From Candidatus Paceibacter sp. (lineage in GTDB: Bacteria; Patescibacteriota; Patescibacteriia; DYGC01), in assembly GCA_020724925.1 (NCBI GenBank), contig DYGC01000001.1, forward strand, positions 5,228 through 69,227: a DNA stretch of 64,000 bases, given 5' to 3'. Below, one piece after another: positions 47,646 through 63,868 of this stretch. The position numbers were made by a program, and so were the translations under genes. Position 1 is the stretch's first letter, and every line of letters begins with the position of its first letter. A model generated the notes under the pieces. The model was given only the letters and a program-made list of their open reading frames with translations, was not told where the DNA came from and did not search any database.

Positions 47646-48797
47646 ATGGCAAAAGTGATGGAAGGATCGCGCGCGGTGGCGGAGTTGGTGCGTTTGTGTG
47701 AACCGGGCGTGGTTAGTGCTTATCCGATTACCCCGCAAACTCATATTGTGGAATATTTGGCAAAATTTAAGGCTGATGGCTTAGCTACTTATGAATATGT
47801 GCGTGCTGAAAGCGAGTTCACGGCAGCGTCCGTGGTGCTTGGTGCATCAGCCAGTGGCGTTCGTGTGTATAGTGCCACCAGTTCCCAGGGTTTATTATTG
47901 ATGACCGAAGTTTTGTTTAATATTGCCGGCATGCGTTTGCCAGTGGTGATGACTTGTGCCAATCGTTCCGTGAGCGCCCCGATTAATATTTGGAATGATC
48001 AACAGGATGCTTTAACTATTCGTGATTCCGGTTGGTTAATGTTTTATGGTGAGACCGTTCAGGAAGTTTTGGATTTGCATTTGTTGGCTTATAAAGTAGC
48101 AGAGCAATTGAGTTTGCCGGTGATGGTTAATATGGATGGTTTTATTTTAACTCATACTTTTGAACCGGTTGATATTCCTGGTAAGAAAATGATTAAACAA
48201 TATTTGCCAAATTATAAACCGGTTTTGGGGGAAGTTTTAGATCCTAAATTGCCAAAATCATTTGGTTGTTTTGTTGGCCCGAAATATTACTTTGAAATCA
48301 GAAAAGAATTATTTGATAATGTTGTTTCCAGTTTAAAAGTGATTCAGAAGGAAGTACTTAATTTTAAAAAAATATTTAAACGTGATTTGTCTCCGGTGGA
48401 ATATTTTGGTGATAAGCAAGCCAAATTGGTTTTTGTGACAATGGGGTCGGTGGCCGGAACAGTTAAGGATTTTATTGAGAAACACAACAAAAAAAGTAAA
48501 GATAAATTAGGTTTGTTGAAGCTTCGTTGTTTTAGACCTTTCCCGACCGAAGAGATTTTTAAGATTTTAGGTAAAGCTAAGAAGGTGGCAGTCCTTGATA
48601 AATCAGTATCAATGGGGGCGGAGGGGGTTTTGTCCGGTGAAATGAAGCGAGCTTTTTATGGCCGCAAGACTTGTCCGTTAATTAAAAATTATATTCTTGG
48701 TTTGGGCGGACGAGATATTACCAGCGGAATCTTGGGGGACATTTTTGAAGATTTGAAAAAGAGTAGTCAGTCAGAGATTATTTTTAAAGGTAAATAA
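47646..48797 (+). CDS. porA: 2-oxoacid:ferredoxin oxidoreductase alpha subunit
   Basis: MEGSRAVAELVRLCEPGVVSAYPITPQT is a canonical PorA N-terminus. 383 aa. Confidence 0.85.
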   Translation: MAKVMEGSRAVAELVRLCEPGVVSAYPITPQTHIVEYLAKFKADGLATYEYVRAESEFTAASVVLGASASGVRVYSATSSQGLLLMTEVLFNIAGMRLPVVMTCANRSVSAPINIWNDQQDALTIRDSGWLMFYGETVQEVLDLHLLAYKVAEQLSLPVMVNMDGFILTHTFEPVDIPGKKMIKQYLPNYKPVLGEVLDPKLPKSFGCFVGPKYYFEIRKELFDNVVSSLKVIQKEVLNFKKIFKRDLSPVEYFGDKQAKLVFVTMGSVAGTVKDFIEKHNKKSKDKLGLLKLRCFRPFPTEEIFKILGKAKKVAVLDKSVSMGAEGVLSGEMKRAFYGRKTCPLIKNYILGLGGRDITSGILGDIFEDLKKSSQSEIIFKGK

Positions 48798-51197: not shown

Positions 51198-52073
51198 ATG
51201 ACCAAACAATATCAAGCTCTCTCCCCCGGTCACACCGCGTGCGCCGGCTGCGGCGAACTTCTGGCAATGCGCCACGCTTTGCAAGCGGCCGGACCGGACG
51301 TAATCGTGACCGGAGCCACCGGTTGTAGTGAAGTCACCACTTCCGGTTACCCGGATAGTTCTTTCGGAATGCCGTGGATTCATTCTTTGTTTGAAAATTC
51401 ATCATCGGTTGCATCGGGGATCGCGGCGGCCCTGCGATACCAGAAAAAACAAGACAAAATCAAAGTGATTGCCACCGGCGGTGATGGCGCGACTTTTGAT
51501 ATTGGTTTTGGAGCACTTTCGGCAATGTGGAGTCGTGGTGATGATATTTTGTATATTTGTTATGACAATGAGGCTTATATGAATACCGGTGTGCAAGCTA
51601 GTGGCGCCACTTTGCCGGGAACATCTACGACCACCAGTCCGAGTGGGGCGGTGGAGCAGGGAAATATGATGCCGAAAAAAGATATGCCGGCGATTGCCAT
51701 GGCACACGGTTGTGTTTATGTTGCCACCGCCTCTCCCGGCTACCCGATTGATATTCAAAACAAAGTAAAAAAAGCTTTGACCATGAAGGGACCGAAATAT
51801 ATTCAGTTATTATCGCCGTGTGTGCCAGGCTGGGGTTTTTCTACTGATCAAGCAGTGAAATTAGGAAAACTCGCTCATCAAACCGGTTTGTATCCAATTT
51901 TTGAAGCTGTTAATGGACAAATCACCAGTGCGATGAAAGTCCCCAAACCCACGCCCTCGGTAAGCGCTTATTTGGAATTGCAAAAACGATTTAAACATGT
52001 TTTGAAAAACCCACAATTATTGGCGACGATTCAAGCAATCGCCGATGCCAATATTGTGAAATATGGGTTGTAG
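51198..52073 (+). CDS. porB: 2-oxoacid:ferredoxin oxidoreductase beta subunit (TPP-binding)
   Basis: CAGCGE ... GATGC ... ATGGDGATFDIGFGALS (TPP/Mg GDG motif). 291 aa. Confidence 0.85.
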   Translation: MTKQYQALSPGHTACAGCGELLAMRHALQAAGPDVIVTGATGCSEVTTSGYPDSSFGMPWIHSLFENSSSVASGIAAALRYQKKQDKIKVIATGGDGATFDIGFGALSAMWSRGDDILYICYDNEAYMNTGVQASGATLPGTSTTTSPSGAVEQGNMMPKKDMPAIAMAHGCVYVATASPGYPIDIQNKVKKALTMKGPKYIQLLSPCVPGWGFSTDQAVKLGKLAHQTGLYPIFEAVNGQITSAMKVPKPTPSVSAYLELQKRFKHVLKNPQLLATIQAIADANIVKYGL

Positions 52074-52225: not shown

Positions 52226-52411
52226 AAGTCATCCTGAACTTGTTTCAGGATCTCTCCAATAGACTCTTCATTCCTTAAACGACGGAGGAAATAATAAGGA
52301 TTAATTAAGGGATCCTGAAACAAGTTCAGGATGACTTAAACTCCGTGCTTGAAACAAGTTCAGGATGACTTAAACTCTGTGCTTGAAACAAGTTCAGGAT
52401 GACTAGTCCCC
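52225..52411. repeat. 34-bp hairpin-containing tandem repeat (about 3 copies) plus an upstream inverted copy, inside a GC-rich intergenic island
   Basis: Unit GAAACAAGTTCAGGATGACTTAAACTC(C/T)GTGCTT at 52317-52350 and 52351-52384, truncated third copy 52385-52407. Each unit contains the CCTGAA-ACAAG-TTCAGG inverted repeat. TAAGTCATCCTGAACTTGTTTCAGGATC at 52225-52252 is the reverse complement of the unit core. CAGGATGAC also recurs at 52429. Confidence 0.6.
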
Positions 52412-52451: not shown

Positions 52452-53924
52452 TTACGGTAATCTCTTCACGAAATCCACAAGCTCCGCTACCGCTTTGTCC
52501 ATTTTTCCACTTTTATTTTCAATCACCAAGTCATAATACTGACTGAAACTTTTTTCTTCACTGGCGTTGGCTAAACGAATTTTAATATCTTCTTCGGTGT
52601 TACTACCACGTCCACGTAAGCGTTTTTCCAAATCTTTGAGCGGGGCATCAATGAAAATCAACCAGGCTTCTGGGTATTGATCACGGATTTGCAAAGCTCC
52701 CTGAATATCGATATTTAAAACAATATTTTTATTTTTGATAGTGTTTTCCAAAACATCACGCGCGGTGCCATAATAATTTTCATGGACCAACGCCCATTCA
52801 ATCACTTTATTTTCTCTAATCAGTTGTTCAAATTCTTCTTTGCTGACATTGAGAATTTTTTTATCTTCAGGAATTTCTCGGGGGGCACGGGTGGTGTAGG
52901 TAGCGCCAGTTTGTAATTGTAACTCTCCGTGTTTTTTTAAAACATCAATGATGATAGTACTTTTCCCAGCACCGGAAGCACCGGAAACAATTAAAATATT
53001 TTTGTTGGGATTGACTTCATTTAAAAACATTTTCAATTCAAATGGTAATTTGCTGTAGAATTTTTGTGGTTCTCCGTTTAAATCAGTAAATTCCAGTTCT
53101 TGTGCATGTAAAAAAATTCTTCCTAAATTAATACTGCGATATTTTTTCTGTTTGTAGAGCGGGTCACCGACAATCGCGTGGCCGAAGGCGTGAAAATGAG
53201 CACGAATTTGGTGAGTGCGTCCGCTTTTTAGATTGATTTTTAATAAGGAGAAGTGTTTGTAAGGTTTGATTAATTCGTATTCGGTAATTGATTCCTTGCC
53301 ACTTTCGGCATTGCTTGGTTTGGCAACCATGCGTTTTTTGTCAGAGCTTCGTTCCAGTTTGAAATTAATAACCCCGCTTTCTTTGTTTGGTTTACCAAAA
53401 GCTAGAGCAATATAATGTTTTTTGATGCTACGATTTTGAAATTGTTGCTTGAGATGTTCAAACATTTTTTTTGTCCGAGCGATTACTAATAAACCGGAGA
53501 CCATTTTGTCCAGACGATGTACGATGCCAGGGCGTAGCGGATCATCACCGATTCCTTCTAAATTTGGATATTTTTCCAATAATTGTTGAATGGCACTGCT
53601 TTGTTGAAGGTTTTTGCTACCATGGGTGGCTAATCCAGCTGGTTTATCAATAACAATAAAATTACGATCGACTTTAAGAATTCTAATCTGCGGAGCATTG
53701 CTTTTGTCGTCTTCTTGTTGGTTTTTTGTATCAAAAACACAAGCAATCTCATCGTTGTTGTCCAGCCAGTGGTGTGGGGTGTTGATGACTTGTCCATTGA
53801 TACTAATTTGGCCATTTTTAATCCAATTTTGGATTTGATTTCGTGAATATTTTTTGAGCTTACTGACCAGAAATTTATCTAAACGCTCATCGCCACTTTC
53901 TTCGAAAATAAAAGTTTTTTTCAT
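52452..53924 (-). CDS. Fusion protein: RluA/RluD-family 23S rRNA pseudouridine synthase (S4 + catalytic domain) fused to guanylate kinase
   Basis: N-terminal S4 domain (ERLDKFLVSKL...) and RluA catalytic motif HRLDKMVSGLLVIART. C-terminal ~190 aa has the Gmk P-loop IVSGASGAGKSTI, TTRAPREIPEDKKILNVSKEEF and EWALVHENYYGT motifs. Single uninterrupted 490-aa ORF. Confidence 0.7.
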   Translation of the reverse strand: MKKTFIFEESGDERLDKFLVSKLKKYSRNQIQNWIKNGQISINGQVINTPHHWLDNNDEIACVFDTKNQQEDDKSNAPQIRILKVDRNFIVIDKPAGLATHGSKNLQQSSAIQQLLEKYPNLEGIGDDPLRPGIVHRLDKMVSGLLVIARTKKMFEHLKQQFQNRSIKKHYIALAFGKPNKESGVINFKLERSSDKKRMVAKPSNAESGKESITEYELIKPYKHFSLLKINLKSGRTHQIRAHFHAFGHAIVGDPLYKQKKYRSINLGRIFLHAQELEFTDLNGEPQKFYSKLPFELKMFLNEVNPNKNILIVSGASGAGKSTIIIDVLKKHGELQLQTGATYTTRAPREIPEDKKILNVSKEEFEQLIRENKVIEWALVHENYYGTARDVLENTIKNKNIVLNIDIQGALQIRDQYPEAWLIFIDAPLKDLEKRLRGRGSNTEEDIKIRLANASEEKSFSQYYDLVIENKSGKMDKAVAELVDFVKRLP

Positions 53925-60126: not shown

Positions 60127-62109
60127 ATGAGGATTTTCAGGCATTTTTCTTTTTTCCTTTTGGTGTTTGCCATGTTTACCTTAAGTGGTAATTTTGTGTT
60201 TTCGGCTGATGATTGTGTTAAAGAGGAGGAGTTGGTTTGTTACACAGTTTTAAGGGTTGATGGTATGAACGTTTTATTTAATGCCACTCCTTCTGGTATT
60301 CAGTTATCGACAAGTGAGGCTCTTAGCTATGCGATGATGAGTGATCAAGCTCGTTCCACTTCTTTGGTGTGCCTCATTCCTAAAAGTAAAATCCCAAAAA
60401 ACATTACTGATGATGATTCTTATGCTCGGTGCATGGCAGAAGCATCGTCTGCTAGTTATGGGTCATTGAAATATTATAAATGTTGGTTGGGAAACAATTT
60501 TAATACTATTACTAGCCCAAATTTTTACACTTGCAATTGGTACACAATTGAAAAGCAGTTGGCTGCGGAAGCACAAGCTAAGCGGCTTGCAGAAGGTAAG
60601 GAATATGGTTCTGGAAACATCACTTGTGGTGGTCGTACTTTTCAGTGTACACCTAGTGGTTGGTTCGCGAATGTTTCCCCCGCCTGTTTTTGTTGCGGTC
60701 AGTGCGAGCCCCGGGATTTATTAACAGTTGGAAATACCTTTTTAAAATGGTTGTTTGGTATTGTCGGGGCGATTGGTTTGGCAATGTTTGTGTGGGGTGG
60801 TTTCAATTGGATTACTTCTGCCGGTGATCAGGGTAAGATCACGACCGGTAAAAAGGCGATTACTAATACCATGGTTGGTTTACTGATTATGTTTTCCGCT
60901 GGAGTGGTTGTTATGACTATTCAAAAAACTCTTGGTTTGGATGTGCAGATATCAGTGGTGGGGCAGCTTGATAGTAATACCGGAGCGGATGCTACCGGTA
61001 GTACCGATGCTAGTCAAGAAGTTCATGGTAATTTGCAATTGGGTGATAAGTGTACAGTTCAAGAGAAAACTTCTAATAGTGATTGTGCTAAGGATTTATA
61101 TTGTTATGCGGTTAAGGACAATCCGGAAACTAAAGGTATTTGTTTGCCAAAAAATCCGAAGGGGTCATCAAAGCCCGGTTATCGTTGTTGGATTTTAAAT
61201 GATGGCAATACTTGTTCTTTGGGGGAATGTTTGGTACTTGTGGAGCCTTCGGTAGATCCTGGTACTACTAATAAAGCCATTCCTGGGACGGAAGGTGTTT
61301 GTACCAGTGAAGAAGACGTAAATAAAATCATTGGTAAGGCTTGTAAGGCCGATACTGAGTGTGGTTCTGGTTTTAAGTGTACTAATGGGAAATGTATAAT
61401 CGTTACTAGCAGTAATATGAATCGTCGCGAACCGTGCTACGTGTTACCGGGTAGTAATACTAATGATTGTATCTCTGATTTTAAGTGCTTTCCGGATTTA
61501 AATAATGCGACTGCTAAAAGAACTGTTGGCACAAAAGGAACCTGTGCTTATAACCAAAGCTTGGTTGAAGGTAAAATATGTATTGGTAATGTTGAATGTA
61601 AAACTGGTTTGCTTTGTAAGCGGATTCCTAAGGCTTCTACCGAGGTGTGTGTTAGTAAAACGAGAAAATTTGATGTTCCTGTCGGTGGATCTTGCTTTAA
61701 ATTTACCATGGAGGGATCCAGTGATCCTGATGATCAATGGAAAAACGTGATTGATAATTGCGTCTTAGGTTTAGATTGTTATTATGGAAAAGATAGCGAC
61801 AAGTCTGGCATTTGTGCACCACCAAATCCTGTGAATTCTGTTAGCAGTATTGGTGGAGAGTGCTATATTTTGCCAGGTAGTTCATCAATGTGTGCCAACA
61901 ATTCCCAGTGCGTTGCTTATATTTCCAAGGCTTATAAAACAACTCCTGGATCAAAGGGTATTTGTATTCCTAAGTATAATTCAGTGGACGAAGGTCAGAC
62001 TTGTGTTTATTTGCCTGGAACTAAAACTGTTTGTAAGAGTGGTTTGACTTGTGATATCGGAATGTGGACCAAGGAATTTGGTCGACAAGGAGTTTGTGTG
62101 CGCAAATAG
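60127..62109 (+). CDS. Large cysteine-rich surface protein with VirB2/TrbC-like pilin module and about 7 tandem Cys-knot-like modules (660 aa)
   Basis: Signal peptide. Cys-rich N-region, then pilin-like module LKWLFGIVGAIGLAMFVWGGFNWITSAGDQGKITTGKKAITNTMVGLLIMFSAGVVVM. About 7 repeats of C-x(5-12)-C-x(3-6)-C-x(8-20)-G(I/V)C(L/I/V)PK (e.g. GDKCTVQEKTSNSDCAKDLYCYAV...KGICLPK; GGECYILPGSSSMCANNSQCVAY...KGICIPK). Confidence 0.55.
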   Translation: MRIFRHFSFFLLVFAMFTLSGNFVFSADDCVKEEELVCYTVLRVDGMNVLFNATPSGIQLSTSEALSYAMMSDQARSTSLVCLIPKSKIPKNITDDDSYARCMAEASSASYGSLKYYKCWLGNNFNTITSPNFYTCNWYTIEKQLAAEAQAKRLAEGKEYGSGNITCGGRTFQCTPSGWFANVSPACFCCGQCEPRDLLTVGNTFLKWLFGIVGAIGLAMFVWGGFNWITSAGDQGKITTGKKAITNTMVGLLIMFSAGVVVMTIQKTLGLDVQISVVGQLDSNTGADATGSTDASQEVHGNLQLGDKCTVQEKTSNSDCAKDLYCYAVKDNPETKGICLPKNPKGSSKPGYRCWILNDGNTCSLGECLVLVEPSVDPGTTNKAIPGTEGVCTSEEDVNKIIGKACKADTECGSGFKCTNGKCIIVTSSNMNRREPCYVLPGSNTNDCISDFKCFPDLNNATAKRTVGTKGTCAYNQSLVEGKICIGNVECKTGLLCKRIPKASTEVCVSKTRKFDVPVGGSCFKFTMEGSSDPDDQWKNVIDNCVLGLDCYYGKDSDKSGICAPPNPVNSVSSIGGECYILPGSSSMCANNSQCVAYISKAYKTTPGSKGICIPKYNSVDEGQTCVYLPGTKTVCKSGLTCDIGMWTKEFGRQGVCVRK

Positions 62110-62182
62110 GTTTGTCTAAAAAGTATTTTTACGCTATAATATAGGTATTATAAACGCCTAATTAAAAAATAAGAAAAAAATT

Positions 62183-62587
62183 ATGCGATCAATGAAAAGT
62201 TTCGTTTTGAGCTTGGTCATGGGCTTGGCGGTTTTTATGCCTTTGGCTGGTGCTAGTGCTGTTACTTTGTTTCCAGATGCTTCTGGTACCGGGGAAGACA
62301 TGGCTACTACCATGGGTTTAAGCGCTGACAAGTCTTTGGCTGAGATTATCGCCAGTATTATTAACATTGTCTTAAGTGTCTTGGGTGTGGTCTTGGTTGT
62401 TTTGATTATTTATGCTGGTATTAAATGGATGACTTCTTCTGATGAAAAGGGTGTCGGTGATGCCAAGAAAATTTTAATCAACGCGATTGTCGGTTTGGTA
62501 ATTATCGTGGCTGCTTGGGCGATTACCTCATTCGTGGTTAGTAGTATTATGACTTCTGTGGGCGATACCGGTGGATTACCTTCCTAG
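62183..62587 (+). CDS. VirB2/TrbC-like pilin-fold protein, paralog 1 (134 aa)
   Basis: Sec-type signal peptide (PLAGASA/VT). Mature part: TM helix IVLSVLGVVLVVLIIYAGIKWMTSSDEKGVGDAKKILINAIVGLVIIVAAWAITSFVV (two TM helices joined by a W-M-T-S-x-D/K-rich turn). Own terminator downstream. Confidence 0.55.
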   Translation: MRSMKSFVLSLVMGLAVFMPLAGASAVTLFPDASGTGEDMATTMGLSADKSLAEIIASIINIVLSVLGVVLVVLIIYAGIKWMTSSDEKGVGDAKKILINAIVGLVIIVAAWAITSFVVSSIMTSVGDTGGLPS

Positions 62588-62595
62588 TTTTTTAT

Positions 62596-62622
62596 AAAAA
62601 GGAGAGTTATTCTCCTTTTTTA
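62596..62622 (+). terminator. Rho-independent terminator after pilin-like paralog 1
   Basis: AAAAGGAGAG-TTAT-TCTCCTTTTTT: perfect 8-bp stem plus T-run. Confidence 0.6.
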
Positions 62623-62658
62623 TAAGGCATCAGTTAATTTGTTGGTGTTTTATAAAAA

Positions 62659-63015
62659 GTGAGAATAATAAAAATTAATATGTTAAATATAAAAAACAAA
62701 TTTCTTGCGTTGGTGACGTCTTTTGCTTTGTGGTTGTTTCCTTTTTGGGTGTTCGCGGAAACTTTATATAATCCAATGAGTGGGACTAAGGATGTGCCAA
62801 CTTTAATTGGTAAGATTTTGAGTATAGTAATTGGTATAATTGGAGCAATTGCTTTGGTAATGTTTATTTTTGGTGGTTTTTTATGGATGACTTCTGCAGG
62901 GGATACGGGATCAATAAAAAAGGGGAAAGATACCATGGTTTATGCAGTTTTGGGATTGGTTGTGGTTTTTTCTGCACGGGCAATTTTGTCTTTTGTTTTT
63001 GAAAATTTAAAATAA
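62659..63015 (+). CDS. VirB2/TrbC-like pilin-fold protein, paralog 2 (118 aa)
   Basis: Signal peptide (WVFA/ET), then IGAIALVMFIFGGFLWMTSAGDTGSIKKGKDTMVYAVLGLVVVFSARAIL. Confidence 0.55.
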   Translation: MRIIKINMLNIKNKFLALVTSFALWLFPFWVFAETLYNPMSGTKDVPTLIGKILSIVIGIIGAIALVMFIFGGFLWMTSAGDTGSIKKGKDTMVYAVLGLVVVFSARAILSFVFENLK

Positions 63016-63025
63016 GTTTATTGAT

Positions 63026-63454
63026 ATGAATAAAAAAATGATTTATTTGGGGGCGTTACTATTTTTTTTGATAGTTCCTTTTTCTTTATTGGCCGCCGAT
63101 TATGGTTTGACCGAGAGTGCTAATGCTGCAAATCTCCCAGAAAATGTTAATTTAATGGGAATGATTGCAAAAGTGGTTGGAACTGCGCTGTCTTTGGTTG
63201 GTGTGATTTTCTTGATTTTATTTATTTATGGAGGAATGCTCTGGATGACGGCCGGTGGTAAGGCTGATAATACAAAAAAAGCTAAGGATTTAATGGTTAA
63301 TGCGGTAATTGGTCTAGTTTTGATTTTTAGTGCGTATTTTGTGACCAGATTTGTGGTTAGTGAATTAACTTCTGCTTCCCAGGTTGTTCCCGGGGGAAGT
63401 ACAACACCAACGCCTGGAACGAGTTTTAGTAATGGAGTTTTTGATAAAGTTTAG
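63026..63454 (+). CDS. VirB2/TrbC-like pilin-fold protein, paralog 3 (142 aa)
   Basis: Signal peptide (SLLA/AD), then LVGVIFLILFIYGGMLWMTAGGKADNTKKAKDLMVNAVIGLVLIFSAYFV, plus a T/P/G-rich C-terminal tail. Confidence 0.55.
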   Translation: MNKKMIYLGALLFFLIVPFSLLAADYGLTESANAANLPENVNLMGMIAKVVGTALSLVGVIFLILFIYGGMLWMTAGGKADNTKKAKDLMVNAVIGLVLIFSAYFVTRFVVSELTSASQVVPGGSTTPTPGTSFSNGVFDKV

Positions 63455-63481
63455 TTTTCAGTTTTTAATAAAATTATTGCT

Positions 63482-63868
63482 ATGGGGTTTCTTTTTTCTA
63501 ATCAATTGATAGTTTTGTTTCTAGGATTTTTAGCGGGGATATTTTCTCCTTTTTTAACATTTGCCAGCGATTATGGGACAAGTGAATTAGCCAGTCAATT
63601 GGGATATAAGACTTATGCGGTTGACCGTGATTTGATTTTAGCGATTGTTGGCAAAGTTATTGCCGGTGTTTTAGGGTTTTTGGGAGTAGTTTTTTTGGTT
63701 GGTATTGTTTATTATGGTTTTAGATGGATGACAGCCGGTGGGAAGTCAGATGTAGTGAAGGTCGCGAAAGATGGGATTACAAATTTGGTAATTGGTTTAA
63801 TTTTGGTTTTATCGGCTTATGCTATTACTAGTTTTATTTTAAGTATTTTAACTAATGTTAATAAATAG
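63482..63868 (+). CDS. VirB2/TrbC-like pilin-fold protein, paralog 4 (128 aa)
   Basis: Signal peptide (TFA/SD), then LGVVFLVGIVYYGFRWMTAGGKSDVVKVAKDGITNLVIGLILVLSAYAI. Confidence 0.55.
   Translation: MGFLFSNQLIVLFLGFLAGIFSPFLTFASDYGTSELASQLGYKTYAVDRDLILAIVGKVIAGVLGFLGVVFLVGIVYYGFRWMTAGGKSDVVKVAKDGITNLVIGLILVLSAYAITSFILSILTNVNK

Follow-up and report, generated by a model that had tools for sequence, protein, structure and literature searches.

Does the 1.5-kb open reading frame (ORF) rluD::gmk, located on the minus strand of a 64,000-nucleotide stretch of Candidatus Paceibacter sp. DNA (contig DYGC01000001.1, the whole stretch being referred to as the window), encode a genuine single protein in which an RluA/RluD-type pseudouridine synthase is joined to a guanylate kinase (Gmk), how did such a chain arise and do its two parts depend on each other? 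The evidence presented here makes it likely that rluD::gmk encodes a bifunctional housekeeping protein of a Patescibacteria (candidate phyla radiation, CPR) bacterium that originated from loss of the stop codon and spacer between adjacent, co-oriented rluD and gmk genes. The domain architecture is real, conserved, recurrently evolved and previously undescribed, with no paper on an RluD-Gmk fusion being found in the searchable literature, and it is mechanistically ordinary. Both halves belong to well-known families, and biochemically the product most likely represents two ordinary enzymes on one chain.

The gene is read from an ATG start through 490 codons to a stop codon without any internal stop, and the plus-strand translation of the same interval is riddled with stops. 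The initial annotation, made from the DNA letters, had described a single ORF in which an S4 domain and an RluA/RluD-type pseudouridine synthase are joined to a full guanylate kinase, with neither stop nor frameshift in between. Both statements hold, as the matches in Pfam (domain order S4, PseudoU_synth_2 and Guanylate_kin), NCBIfam and PDB agree on the composition and the uninterrupted minus-strand frame on the continuity. All peptide strings quoted there are likewise present, i.e., HRLDKMVSGLLVIART at residues 136-151, SGASGAGKST at 314-323, TTRAPRE at 344-350 and EWALVHENYYGT at 376-387, but the Tyr implied by the pattern 'TTRAPRE...Y...F' is absent, Ile357 aligning at this position.

In the N-terminal half, the entire PF00849 profile is matched (122.3 bits versus a cut-off of 26.8), and the first 300 residues score above the NCBIfam threshold for TIGR00005 rluA_subfam (231.8 versus 192.7 bits). 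RluD is the best-scoring specific NCBIfam model as well as the best PDB match for this half, the E. coli enzyme being aligned end-to-end and collinearly at E 2.3e-34, and the score against the RluD equivalog NF008385 is 151.5 bits, under the cut-off of 351. Judged from these matches, the N-terminal half is RluD-like, its equivalence to RluD and its target sites being putative. The kinase half matches PF00625 with 110.8 bits (cut-off 25.2) and the PDB sequences of E. coli and yeast Gmk at E values of 1.3e-27 and 7.6e-25, respectively, and its SGASGAGKST agrees with the P-loop consensus GxxGxGK[ST]. The guanylate kinase equivalog TIGR03263 is matched with 151.0 bits by the fusion protein and with 154.5 bits by the kinase domain taken alone, both under the cut-off of 160.45.

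An AlphaFold2 model built with a 15-sequence alignment shows a mean predicted local distance difference test score (pLDDT) of 88.3 and a predicted template modelling score (pTM) of 0.75, with values mostly between 85 and 95 over residues 305-490 and with residues 67-73, between the S4 and the catalytic domain, as the only poorly predicted segment. In the model, the last helix of the RluD half (295-304) leads into strand beta-1 of Gmk (310-315) without a linker, pLDDT being about 91 over residues 301-310. Foldseek comparison with the PDB retrieved 2IST (E 3.4e-27) and RluA 2I82 (template modelling score 0.89) for the RluD half and 2AN9 (E 2.8e-16) and 1GKY (template modelling score 0.87, root-mean-square deviation 2.1 Å) for the kinase half, but no solved chain spanning both.

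Full-length orthologous fusions at 91, 82, 80, 79 and 52% identity were found in independent assemblies, the fusion being present in JGI 3300036987 (a 330-kb contig), Logan SRR12918152/51, SRR28720261/62, SRR35213523, ENA and GenBank DAIPKK01. In this window clade, at least eight contigs, assembled independently in different projects and encoding proteins of 91-52% identity, share the in-frame junction, and synteny is kept on both flanks, with HlyD-like/FtsX/ABC exporter genes on one side and 2-oxoacid:ferredoxin oxidoreductase genes on the other. An exhaustive phmmer comparison with 1.84 billion representatives clustered at 50% identity yielded nine clusters of collinear full-length fusions (P0003 and P0121-P0128; 34-80% identity; 490-526 residues), the remaining top matches being stand-alone RluD-like proteins of about 300 residues. 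The architecture, which the initial annotation had called unusual and had proposed to look for in related lineages, is thus rare on this scale and exists both in independent assemblies and in distant fusions. Among eight of the latter, Pfam detects the pseudouridine synthase and guanylate kinase domains in all and the S4 domain at E ≤ 1e-5 in seven, and L009 is the only true fusion among the matches to GTDB representatives. A search with the kinase half only missed fusions holding a 90%-identical copy and was not used for fusion counts; C-terminal domains of longer proteins were apparently missed by the word index, and hence fusion counts from there are lower bounds.

Across 15 aligned fusions reaching down to 31% identity, H136, R137, D139, G320, K321, R346, R349, E376, Y385, G386, R435, R439 and R450 are invariant, and the S4 residues R14, L15, D16, S27 and R28 do not vary either. 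Nei-Gojobori comparison with the orthologue at locus L001 resulted in pN 0.050/pS 0.656 for the RluD half and pN 0.057/pS 0.591 for the Gmk half, and comparison with L009 in pN 0.082/pS 0.591 for the Gmk half, dN/dS values derived from these being approximate because dS is saturated. Versus L009 and L006, the Gmk half is better conserved than the RluD half. Strong purifying selection acts on both halves.

Relatives with a stand-alone RluD possess a separate gmk of about 190 codons directly downstream on the same strand (loci L010-L012, L014, L015, L020 and L021). Of these, L010-L012 stem from three GTDB genomes, two labelled Candidatus Magasanikbacteria and one 'uncultured Gammaproteobacteria', and L020 and L021 from Candidatus Buchananbacteria and a 'Patescibacteria group' metagenome-assembled genome (MAG). 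L010-L012 had been considered as fusions in view of their near-full query coverage, yet translation gives separate rluD and gmk ORFs. The sequence between the two genes is TAA-T-ATG in L010 and L012, TAG-TCATT-ATG in L011 and TAATAAT-ATG in L014, and in L020 (3046-4570) and L021 (3037-4576) rluD and gmk overlap by 20 nucleotides in different frames. Six of the seven split loci accordingly show either this overlap or a spacer of 1-7 nucleotides, L015 with 204 nucleotides being the exception. Where the junction reads TAA-T-ATG, a single-base deletion in TAAT suffices to abolish the stop and, at once, bring gmk into the frame of rluD. The genome streamlining brought up in the initial annotation is hence supported in the form of a fusion of adjacent genes that overlap or lie 1-7 nucleotides apart.

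The gene for ribosomal protein L19, rplS, follows the split pairs in L010-L012, L015, L020 and L021 and likewise comes directly after the fusions P0007, P0121, P0125 and P0128, and two genes further on in the case of P0123, from which it follows that the fusion sits in the ancestral rluD-gmk slot. With cca (PolyA_pol family) upstream and rplS downstream, the string (cca-)rluD-gmk-rplS is conserved in Patescibacteria; the window clade has since lost the rplS neighbour. By tblastn, neither a second gmk nor a second rluD was found in the 64-kb window or in any fetched locus of 8-21 kb, so that a separate canonical gmk, which the initial annotation had named, together with signs of a pseudogene, as a finding that would speak against its reading, is absent at this scope. 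In a Candidatus Falkowbacteria locus (L013, 6073-6627), a 184-residue cytidylate-kinase-like P-loop kinase (families Cytidylate_kin2/AAA_17/AAA_18) is encoded between rluD and rplS in place of gmk, which may be a displacement at one operon position.

The junction DNA of four diverged orthologues is in frame, shows synonymous differences and is free of homopolymers, and in none of them would a one-nucleotide shift uncover, close to the junction, a stop or an initiation codon in the frame of gmk. The end of rluD and the start of gmk in the split relatives coincide with the window junction, and P0123 and P0128 carry a Met exactly where a split gmk would start (...ILAN/MRPLNKK... and ...ETLG/MTPAP..., the slash marking the junction). 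Independent assemblies, junction DNA and purifying selection together exclude a chimera, a pseudogene and a decaying kinase domain for the window clade. A conserved internal start giving rise to a separate Gmk from the fused mRNA was rejected, as Met298 is T or Q in P0002-P0005. The junction of the P0128 fusion (L018, ERZ27248697 k141_633384) is strikingly GC-rich compared with the AT-rich junctions of its relatives.

A bootstrapped neighbour-joining tree of the concatenated RluD and Gmk halves shows the window clade (window and P0001-P0005) as monophyletic with 100% bootstrap and joins it with P0007/P0121/P0122 at 80%. Three fused pairs (P0124, P0125 and P0127) and three split ones (L010-L012) make up a mixed clade with 100% bootstrap, P0126/P0128 constitute a further fused clade at 100%, and in trees from single halves the fusions are likewise scattered among stand-alone RluDs. 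As fused and split forms interleave, the fusion state has changed several times, recurrent fusion being the simpler direction given the spacer structure. L011 (CAZCHJ010000008.1), labelled 'uncultured Gammaproteobacteria bacterium', pairs with the Magasanikbacteria-labelled L010 and L012 at 100% bootstrap, and because of this clustering its label is probably wrong.

The kinase half deviates from known guanylate kinases in the loop binding the phosphate of guanosine monophosphate (GMP). The canonical 'GE..G..Y.F' is replaced by 'IPEDKKILNV', the loop reading TTRAPREIPEDKKILNV with TTRAPREIPEDKKI at the replaced Tyr, and the GMP-phosphate-contacting Tyr of the yeast and E. coli enzymes aligns with Ile357. 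Consequently, the window protein does not match the classical Gmk signature T-[ST]-R-x2-[KR]-x2-[DE]-x2-G-x2-Y-x-[FY] (PROSITE-type pattern), in which the Tyr corresponds to yeast Y50 and E. coli Y53. The other GMP and ATP ligands are kept, since R346, R349, E376, Y385, R435, R439 and R450 are among the invariant residues and D406 is found in at least 90% of the 15 fusions; mapped by alignment to the yeast and E. coli Gmk structures, R346 and R349 presumably contact the GMP phosphate and E376 and D406 the guanine, with Y385 and the lid arginines taken to act as ligands as in these enzymes.

Within the window subfamily, E353, D354 and K355 are invariant, and the pattern TYTTRxxRxxx(x)EDK without the canonical Tyr is common to the window clade and P0007/P0121/P0122. 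The distant fusions P0123-P0128 as well as the separately encoded Gmks of L014 and L015 retain the canonical Tyr. A single-sequence search gave 120 nearest stand-alone Gmks from outside Patescibacteria, mostly from Firmicutes and Fusobacteria and sharing no more than 49% identity; the canonical motif is present in 118 of them and the EDK type in none. A profile search with the EDK-type halves, however, identified 34 stand-alone Patescibacteria Gmks of about 190 residues with a TYTTRxxRxxxxEDK loop among the 119 best matches, and the idea of the loop being an adaptation specific to the fusion was rejected. This set (34 proteins, P0397-P0479) includes NCBI-named guanylate kinases from Candidatus Buchananbacteria and 'Patescibacteria group' MAGs as well as P0431 from Candidatus Magasanikbacteria, which bears no protein name. 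Two of the stand-alone genes were located (L020 4001-4570 and L021 4001-4576), both in the rluD-gmk-rplS slot. TIGR03263 scores amount to 160.0-172.3 bits for the stand-alone EDK relatives, i.e., at or above the cut-off, and to 171.8-177.1 bits for canonical-type Patescibacteria Gmks.

The presence of the loop in stand-alone Patescibacteria Gmks points to a lineage-wide subtype that predates the window fusion. Judged by these alignments, the 'EDK-loop' type is a Patescibacteria-wide Gmk subtype lacking the near-universal GMP-phosphate Tyr (TTRxPRxGExxGxxYxF). As Lys355 is placed two residues ahead of position 357 on one strand, it may serve as phosphate ligand instead of the missing Tyr. We know of no biochemical characterization of EDK-type Gmks. 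With a score under the equivalog threshold and without the Tyr signature, the kinase half is regarded here as Gmk-like and probably a Gmk, not as a certified equivalog.

The proposed course of events is as follows. Within a very tightly packed operon, the stop codon and the tiny spacer separating rluD from gmk would have been lost, and both products would thereby have come to lie on one chain. The S4 and RluA-family module would bind rRNA and convert uridine to pseudouridine via Asp139, most likely in helix 69 of 23S rRNA as RluD does, and the kinase module, which is the positional orthologue of the ordinary gmk and belongs to the EDK-loop subtype, would transfer phosphate from ATP to GMP and thereby form guanosine diphosphate (GDP). 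Both activities have presumably been retained and would act independently; the fusion itself would be a side effect of operon compaction, neutral or of slight advantage (a single translation start, both activities at a constant 1:1 ratio), that needs no new mechanism.

Several points weigh against this proposal, in addition to the saturation of dS already mentioned. The trees were obtained by neighbour-joining and mixed-clade bootstraps are below 50%, which leaves the number of events and the choice between fusion and fission unsettled. Among the distant fusions, some are singletons from contigs as short as about 2 kb. The junction of P0125 includes a run of eight A, although a shifted frame would not make a start codon available for gmk there. 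That the window protein would be the only Gmk of its genome is deduced from positional orthology, and with a score under 160.45 and without the GMP-phosphate Tyr, reduced or altered activity of the kinase half is possible. Finally, the rigid, confidently modelled junction together with the pTM of 0.75 could hint at a selected arrangement of the domains relative to each other.

The last point leads to the alternative that survives best, albeit as an unlikely one, namely a selected functional coupling, in line with the link between nucleotide supply and ribosome biogenesis that the initial annotation had offered as the other possible cause and for which the support is circumstantial. Tethering Gmk to an enzyme that binds the pre-50S particle would link supply or sensing of guanine nucleotides to maturation of the large subunit, either by local provision of GDP and guanosine triphosphate (GTP) for assembly GTPases or by control of helix-69 pseudouridylation through GMP/GDP, and the benefit would explain repeated fixation. 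The rluD-gmk-rplS adjacency across many Patescibacteria lineages, the origin or persistence of the fusion in several of them and the absence of a flexible linker in the model would fit, as would the finding of E. coli RluD on a pre-50S-ObgE particle (PDB 7BL5), beside a guanine-nucleotide-binding assembly factor. However, operon adjacency needs no physical interaction, the fusions are rare (nine clusters versus hundreds of stand-alone RluDs among the closest matches), their interleaving with split forms fits near-neutral events eased by 1-nucleotide spacers, and fusion-specific residues were not found, the EDK loop occurring in stand-alone Gmks as well. In its boldest version, which we regard as highly improbable, the fusion would be a device, selected repeatedly in Patescibacteria that scavenge nucleotides, through which the metabolism of guanine nucleotides is physically tied to maturation of the 50S subunit. 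If true, RluD would deliver a rigid Gmk to the pre-50S particle near GTPases such as Obg, or binding of GMP/GDP to the kinase half would gate helix-69 pseudouridylation, and ribosome assembly would be subject to a nutrient checkpoint not recognised before.

Quite improbable, too, is an impaired or repurposed kinase half, either as a nucleotide- or ligand-binding module similar to the GK domains of MAGUK proteins or as a kinase for another substrate. A GMP loop devoid of its canonical Tyr and 'GE..G' turn, the TIGR03263 score below the equivalog cut-off and the D-to-N exchange in 'LNID' (canonical 'LDID') could be read in this way. Nevertheless, the P-loop Lys, both GMP-phosphate Arg, Glu376, Asp406, Tyr385 and three lid Arg are kept, unlike in MAGUK GK domains, purifying selection on the kinase half is at least as strong as on the RluD half, and the model can be overlaid on Gmk structures containing GMP with a deviation of about 2 Å. 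Moreover, the EDK loop is present in stand-alone proteins in the gmk slot that pass the equivalog cut-off and represent the sole gmk-like gene seen there. An artefact, i.e., a chimeric join or a 1-nucleotide indel erasing the stop between two separate genes, such as the initial annotation had itself considered, is barely conceivable and effectively refuted for the window clade, for although a spacer such as TAA-T-ATG could turn into a false fusion by a one-base error and the 2-kb singletons and the P0125 junction might be suspected, the window-clade junction stands in at least eight independent contigs with synonymous differences, no homopolymer, no nearby stop or start in the gmk frame and synteny kept on both sides.

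With the origin from adjacent rluD and gmk genes as the preferred explanation, the consequences concern annotation in the first place. Public copies of the fusion are named solely 'RluA family pseudouridine synthase' or '23S rRNA pseudouridine synthase', and with such names and a kinase half under the NCBI Gmk cut-off, automated metabolic reconstructions would score gmk as missing. Presence or absence of Gmk is used in reconstructing how CPR bacteria obtain GTP (PMC9166423; bioRxiv 10.64898/2026.06.21.733656), and a Gmk domain concealed in this manner is a realistic source of error in annotating CPR metabolism. Besides showing clearly how genes in extremely compact operons can fuse repeatedly in nature, the locus brings up two undescribed regularities of Patescibacteria, the (cca-)rluD-gmk-rplS string and the 'EDK-loop' Gmk subtype.

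Coordinates of rluD::gmk, its domains and motifs and neighbouring features in the window; residue numbers refer to the 490-residue product.
Feature	Position in window	Strand	Evidence
Fusion gene rluD::gmk	52452..53924	-	single ORF; orthologous full-length fusions in independent assemblies
S4 RNA-binding domain, residues 13-60	53745..53888	-	PF01479 E 2.9e-12
Pseudouridine synthase catalytic domain, residues 88-246	53187..53663	-	PF00849 E 2.7e-35, profile 1-152/152; TIGR00005; Foldseek 2IST
Catalytic motif H136-R137-L138-D139 with putative nucleophilic Asp	53508..53519	-	aligned to HRLD of E. coli RluD
Fusion junction, residues 295-310	52995..53042	-	AlphaFold model; junction DNA; gene ends of split relatives
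Guanylate kinase domain, residues 309-487	52464..53000	-	PF00625 E 8.4e-32, profile 3-180/182; PDB and Foldseek
P-loop SGASGAGKS, residues 314-322	52959..52985	-	sequence reading
Variant GMP-phosphate loop R346-A-P-R349-E-I-P-E353-D354-K355-K-I357 ('EDK' type)	52854..52889	-	alignments with E. coli and yeast Gmk
Lid region RLRGRGSNTEEDIKIR, residues 435-450, with R435, R439 and R450	52575..52622	-	aligned to the lid of E. coli and yeast Gmk
Oxidoreductase alpha subunit gene	47646-48797		POR_N/PFOR_II
Cys-rich ORF, 791 residues	48804-51179	+	orthologues in L001 and L006
Oxidoreductase beta subunit gene	51198-52073		TPP_enzyme_C
20-mer GTCATCCTGAACTTGTTTCA	52228-52247	+	4 matches in total versus 0.02 expected
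20-mer GTCATCCTGAACTTGTTTCA	52316-52404 (span of the tandem repeat)	-	
T4SS_pilin/TrbC-like gene cluster	60127-63868	+	ORF sizes and synteny with L001

A scan for promoters and terminators around the fusion gene gave results no better than shuffled sequences. In the convergent intergenic region downstream of the gene, a 34-bp unit is repeated in tandem (2.6 copies with 98% matches). The unit includes a short palindrome (ATCCTGAA...TTCAGGAT), and the repeat may be a bidirectional terminator or an element resembling repetitive extragenic palindromic sequences; the fourth copy of the 20-mer listed in the table is inverted. Beyond this region lies a 2-oxoacid:ferredoxin oxidoreductase operon, in which the ORF of the Cys-rich protein is placed between the alpha and beta subunit genes. 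The insertion is kept in relatives down to the 52%-identity level, with orthologues in L001 (12668-15061) and L006 (12867-15386) showing matches to T4SS_pilin (PF18895). Elsewhere in the window, a run of one large and several small (about 110-140 residues) putative T4SS_pilin/TrbC-like genes, corresponding to L001 1-3849, adjoins an SBP_bac_1/NTP_transferase pair, and the cluster recurs near rluD-gmk in L014, L004 and L016.

Compared with known systems, the N-terminal half resembles E. coli RluD (PDB 1V9F/2IST; 7BL5 on the pre-50S particle), the synthase of pseudouridines 1911/1915/1917 in helix 69 of 23S rRNA, in having an S4 domain followed by an RluA-family catalytic domain with the HRLD Asp, the alignment being collinear over residues 8-260 and covering residues 12-255 of E. 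coli RluD. In contrast to any solved RluD, the window protein bears a C-terminal kinase of 185 residues, and with its N-terminal half under the RluD equivalog cut-off, site specificity is suggested by homology only. With canonical Gmk (E. coli 2AN9, yeast 1GKY), the kinase half shares the P-loop, TTRxPR, E...YYGT, ID.QG, the lid RxxxR...R and the full length, whereas the '..EDK..' hairpin, Ile357 in place of Tyr, a score about 6-9 bits under TIGR03263 and the fusion itself set it apart. The nearest functional relatives are probably the stand-alone EDK-type Gmks (P0406 from Candidatus Buchananbacteria, P0399, and P0431 from Candidatus Magasanikbacteria), which possess the same loop but are separate proteins of about 190 residues, with the genes in L020 and L021 overlapping rluD by 20 nucleotides. 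MAGUK GK domains also present a Gmk fold inside a multidomain protein and give weak sequence matches (1e-6 to 1e-8), but have lost P-loop and catalysis, whereas P-loop and catalytic Arg of the window protein are invariant. Precedent for a C-terminal P-loop nucleoside monophosphate kinase on an unrelated housekeeping enzyme is provided by the 'Rosetta-stone' protein PanC/Cmk (NF010004), in which pantoate-beta-alanine ligase is joined to (d)CMP kinase, that is, with another partner, another kinase and in another lineage.

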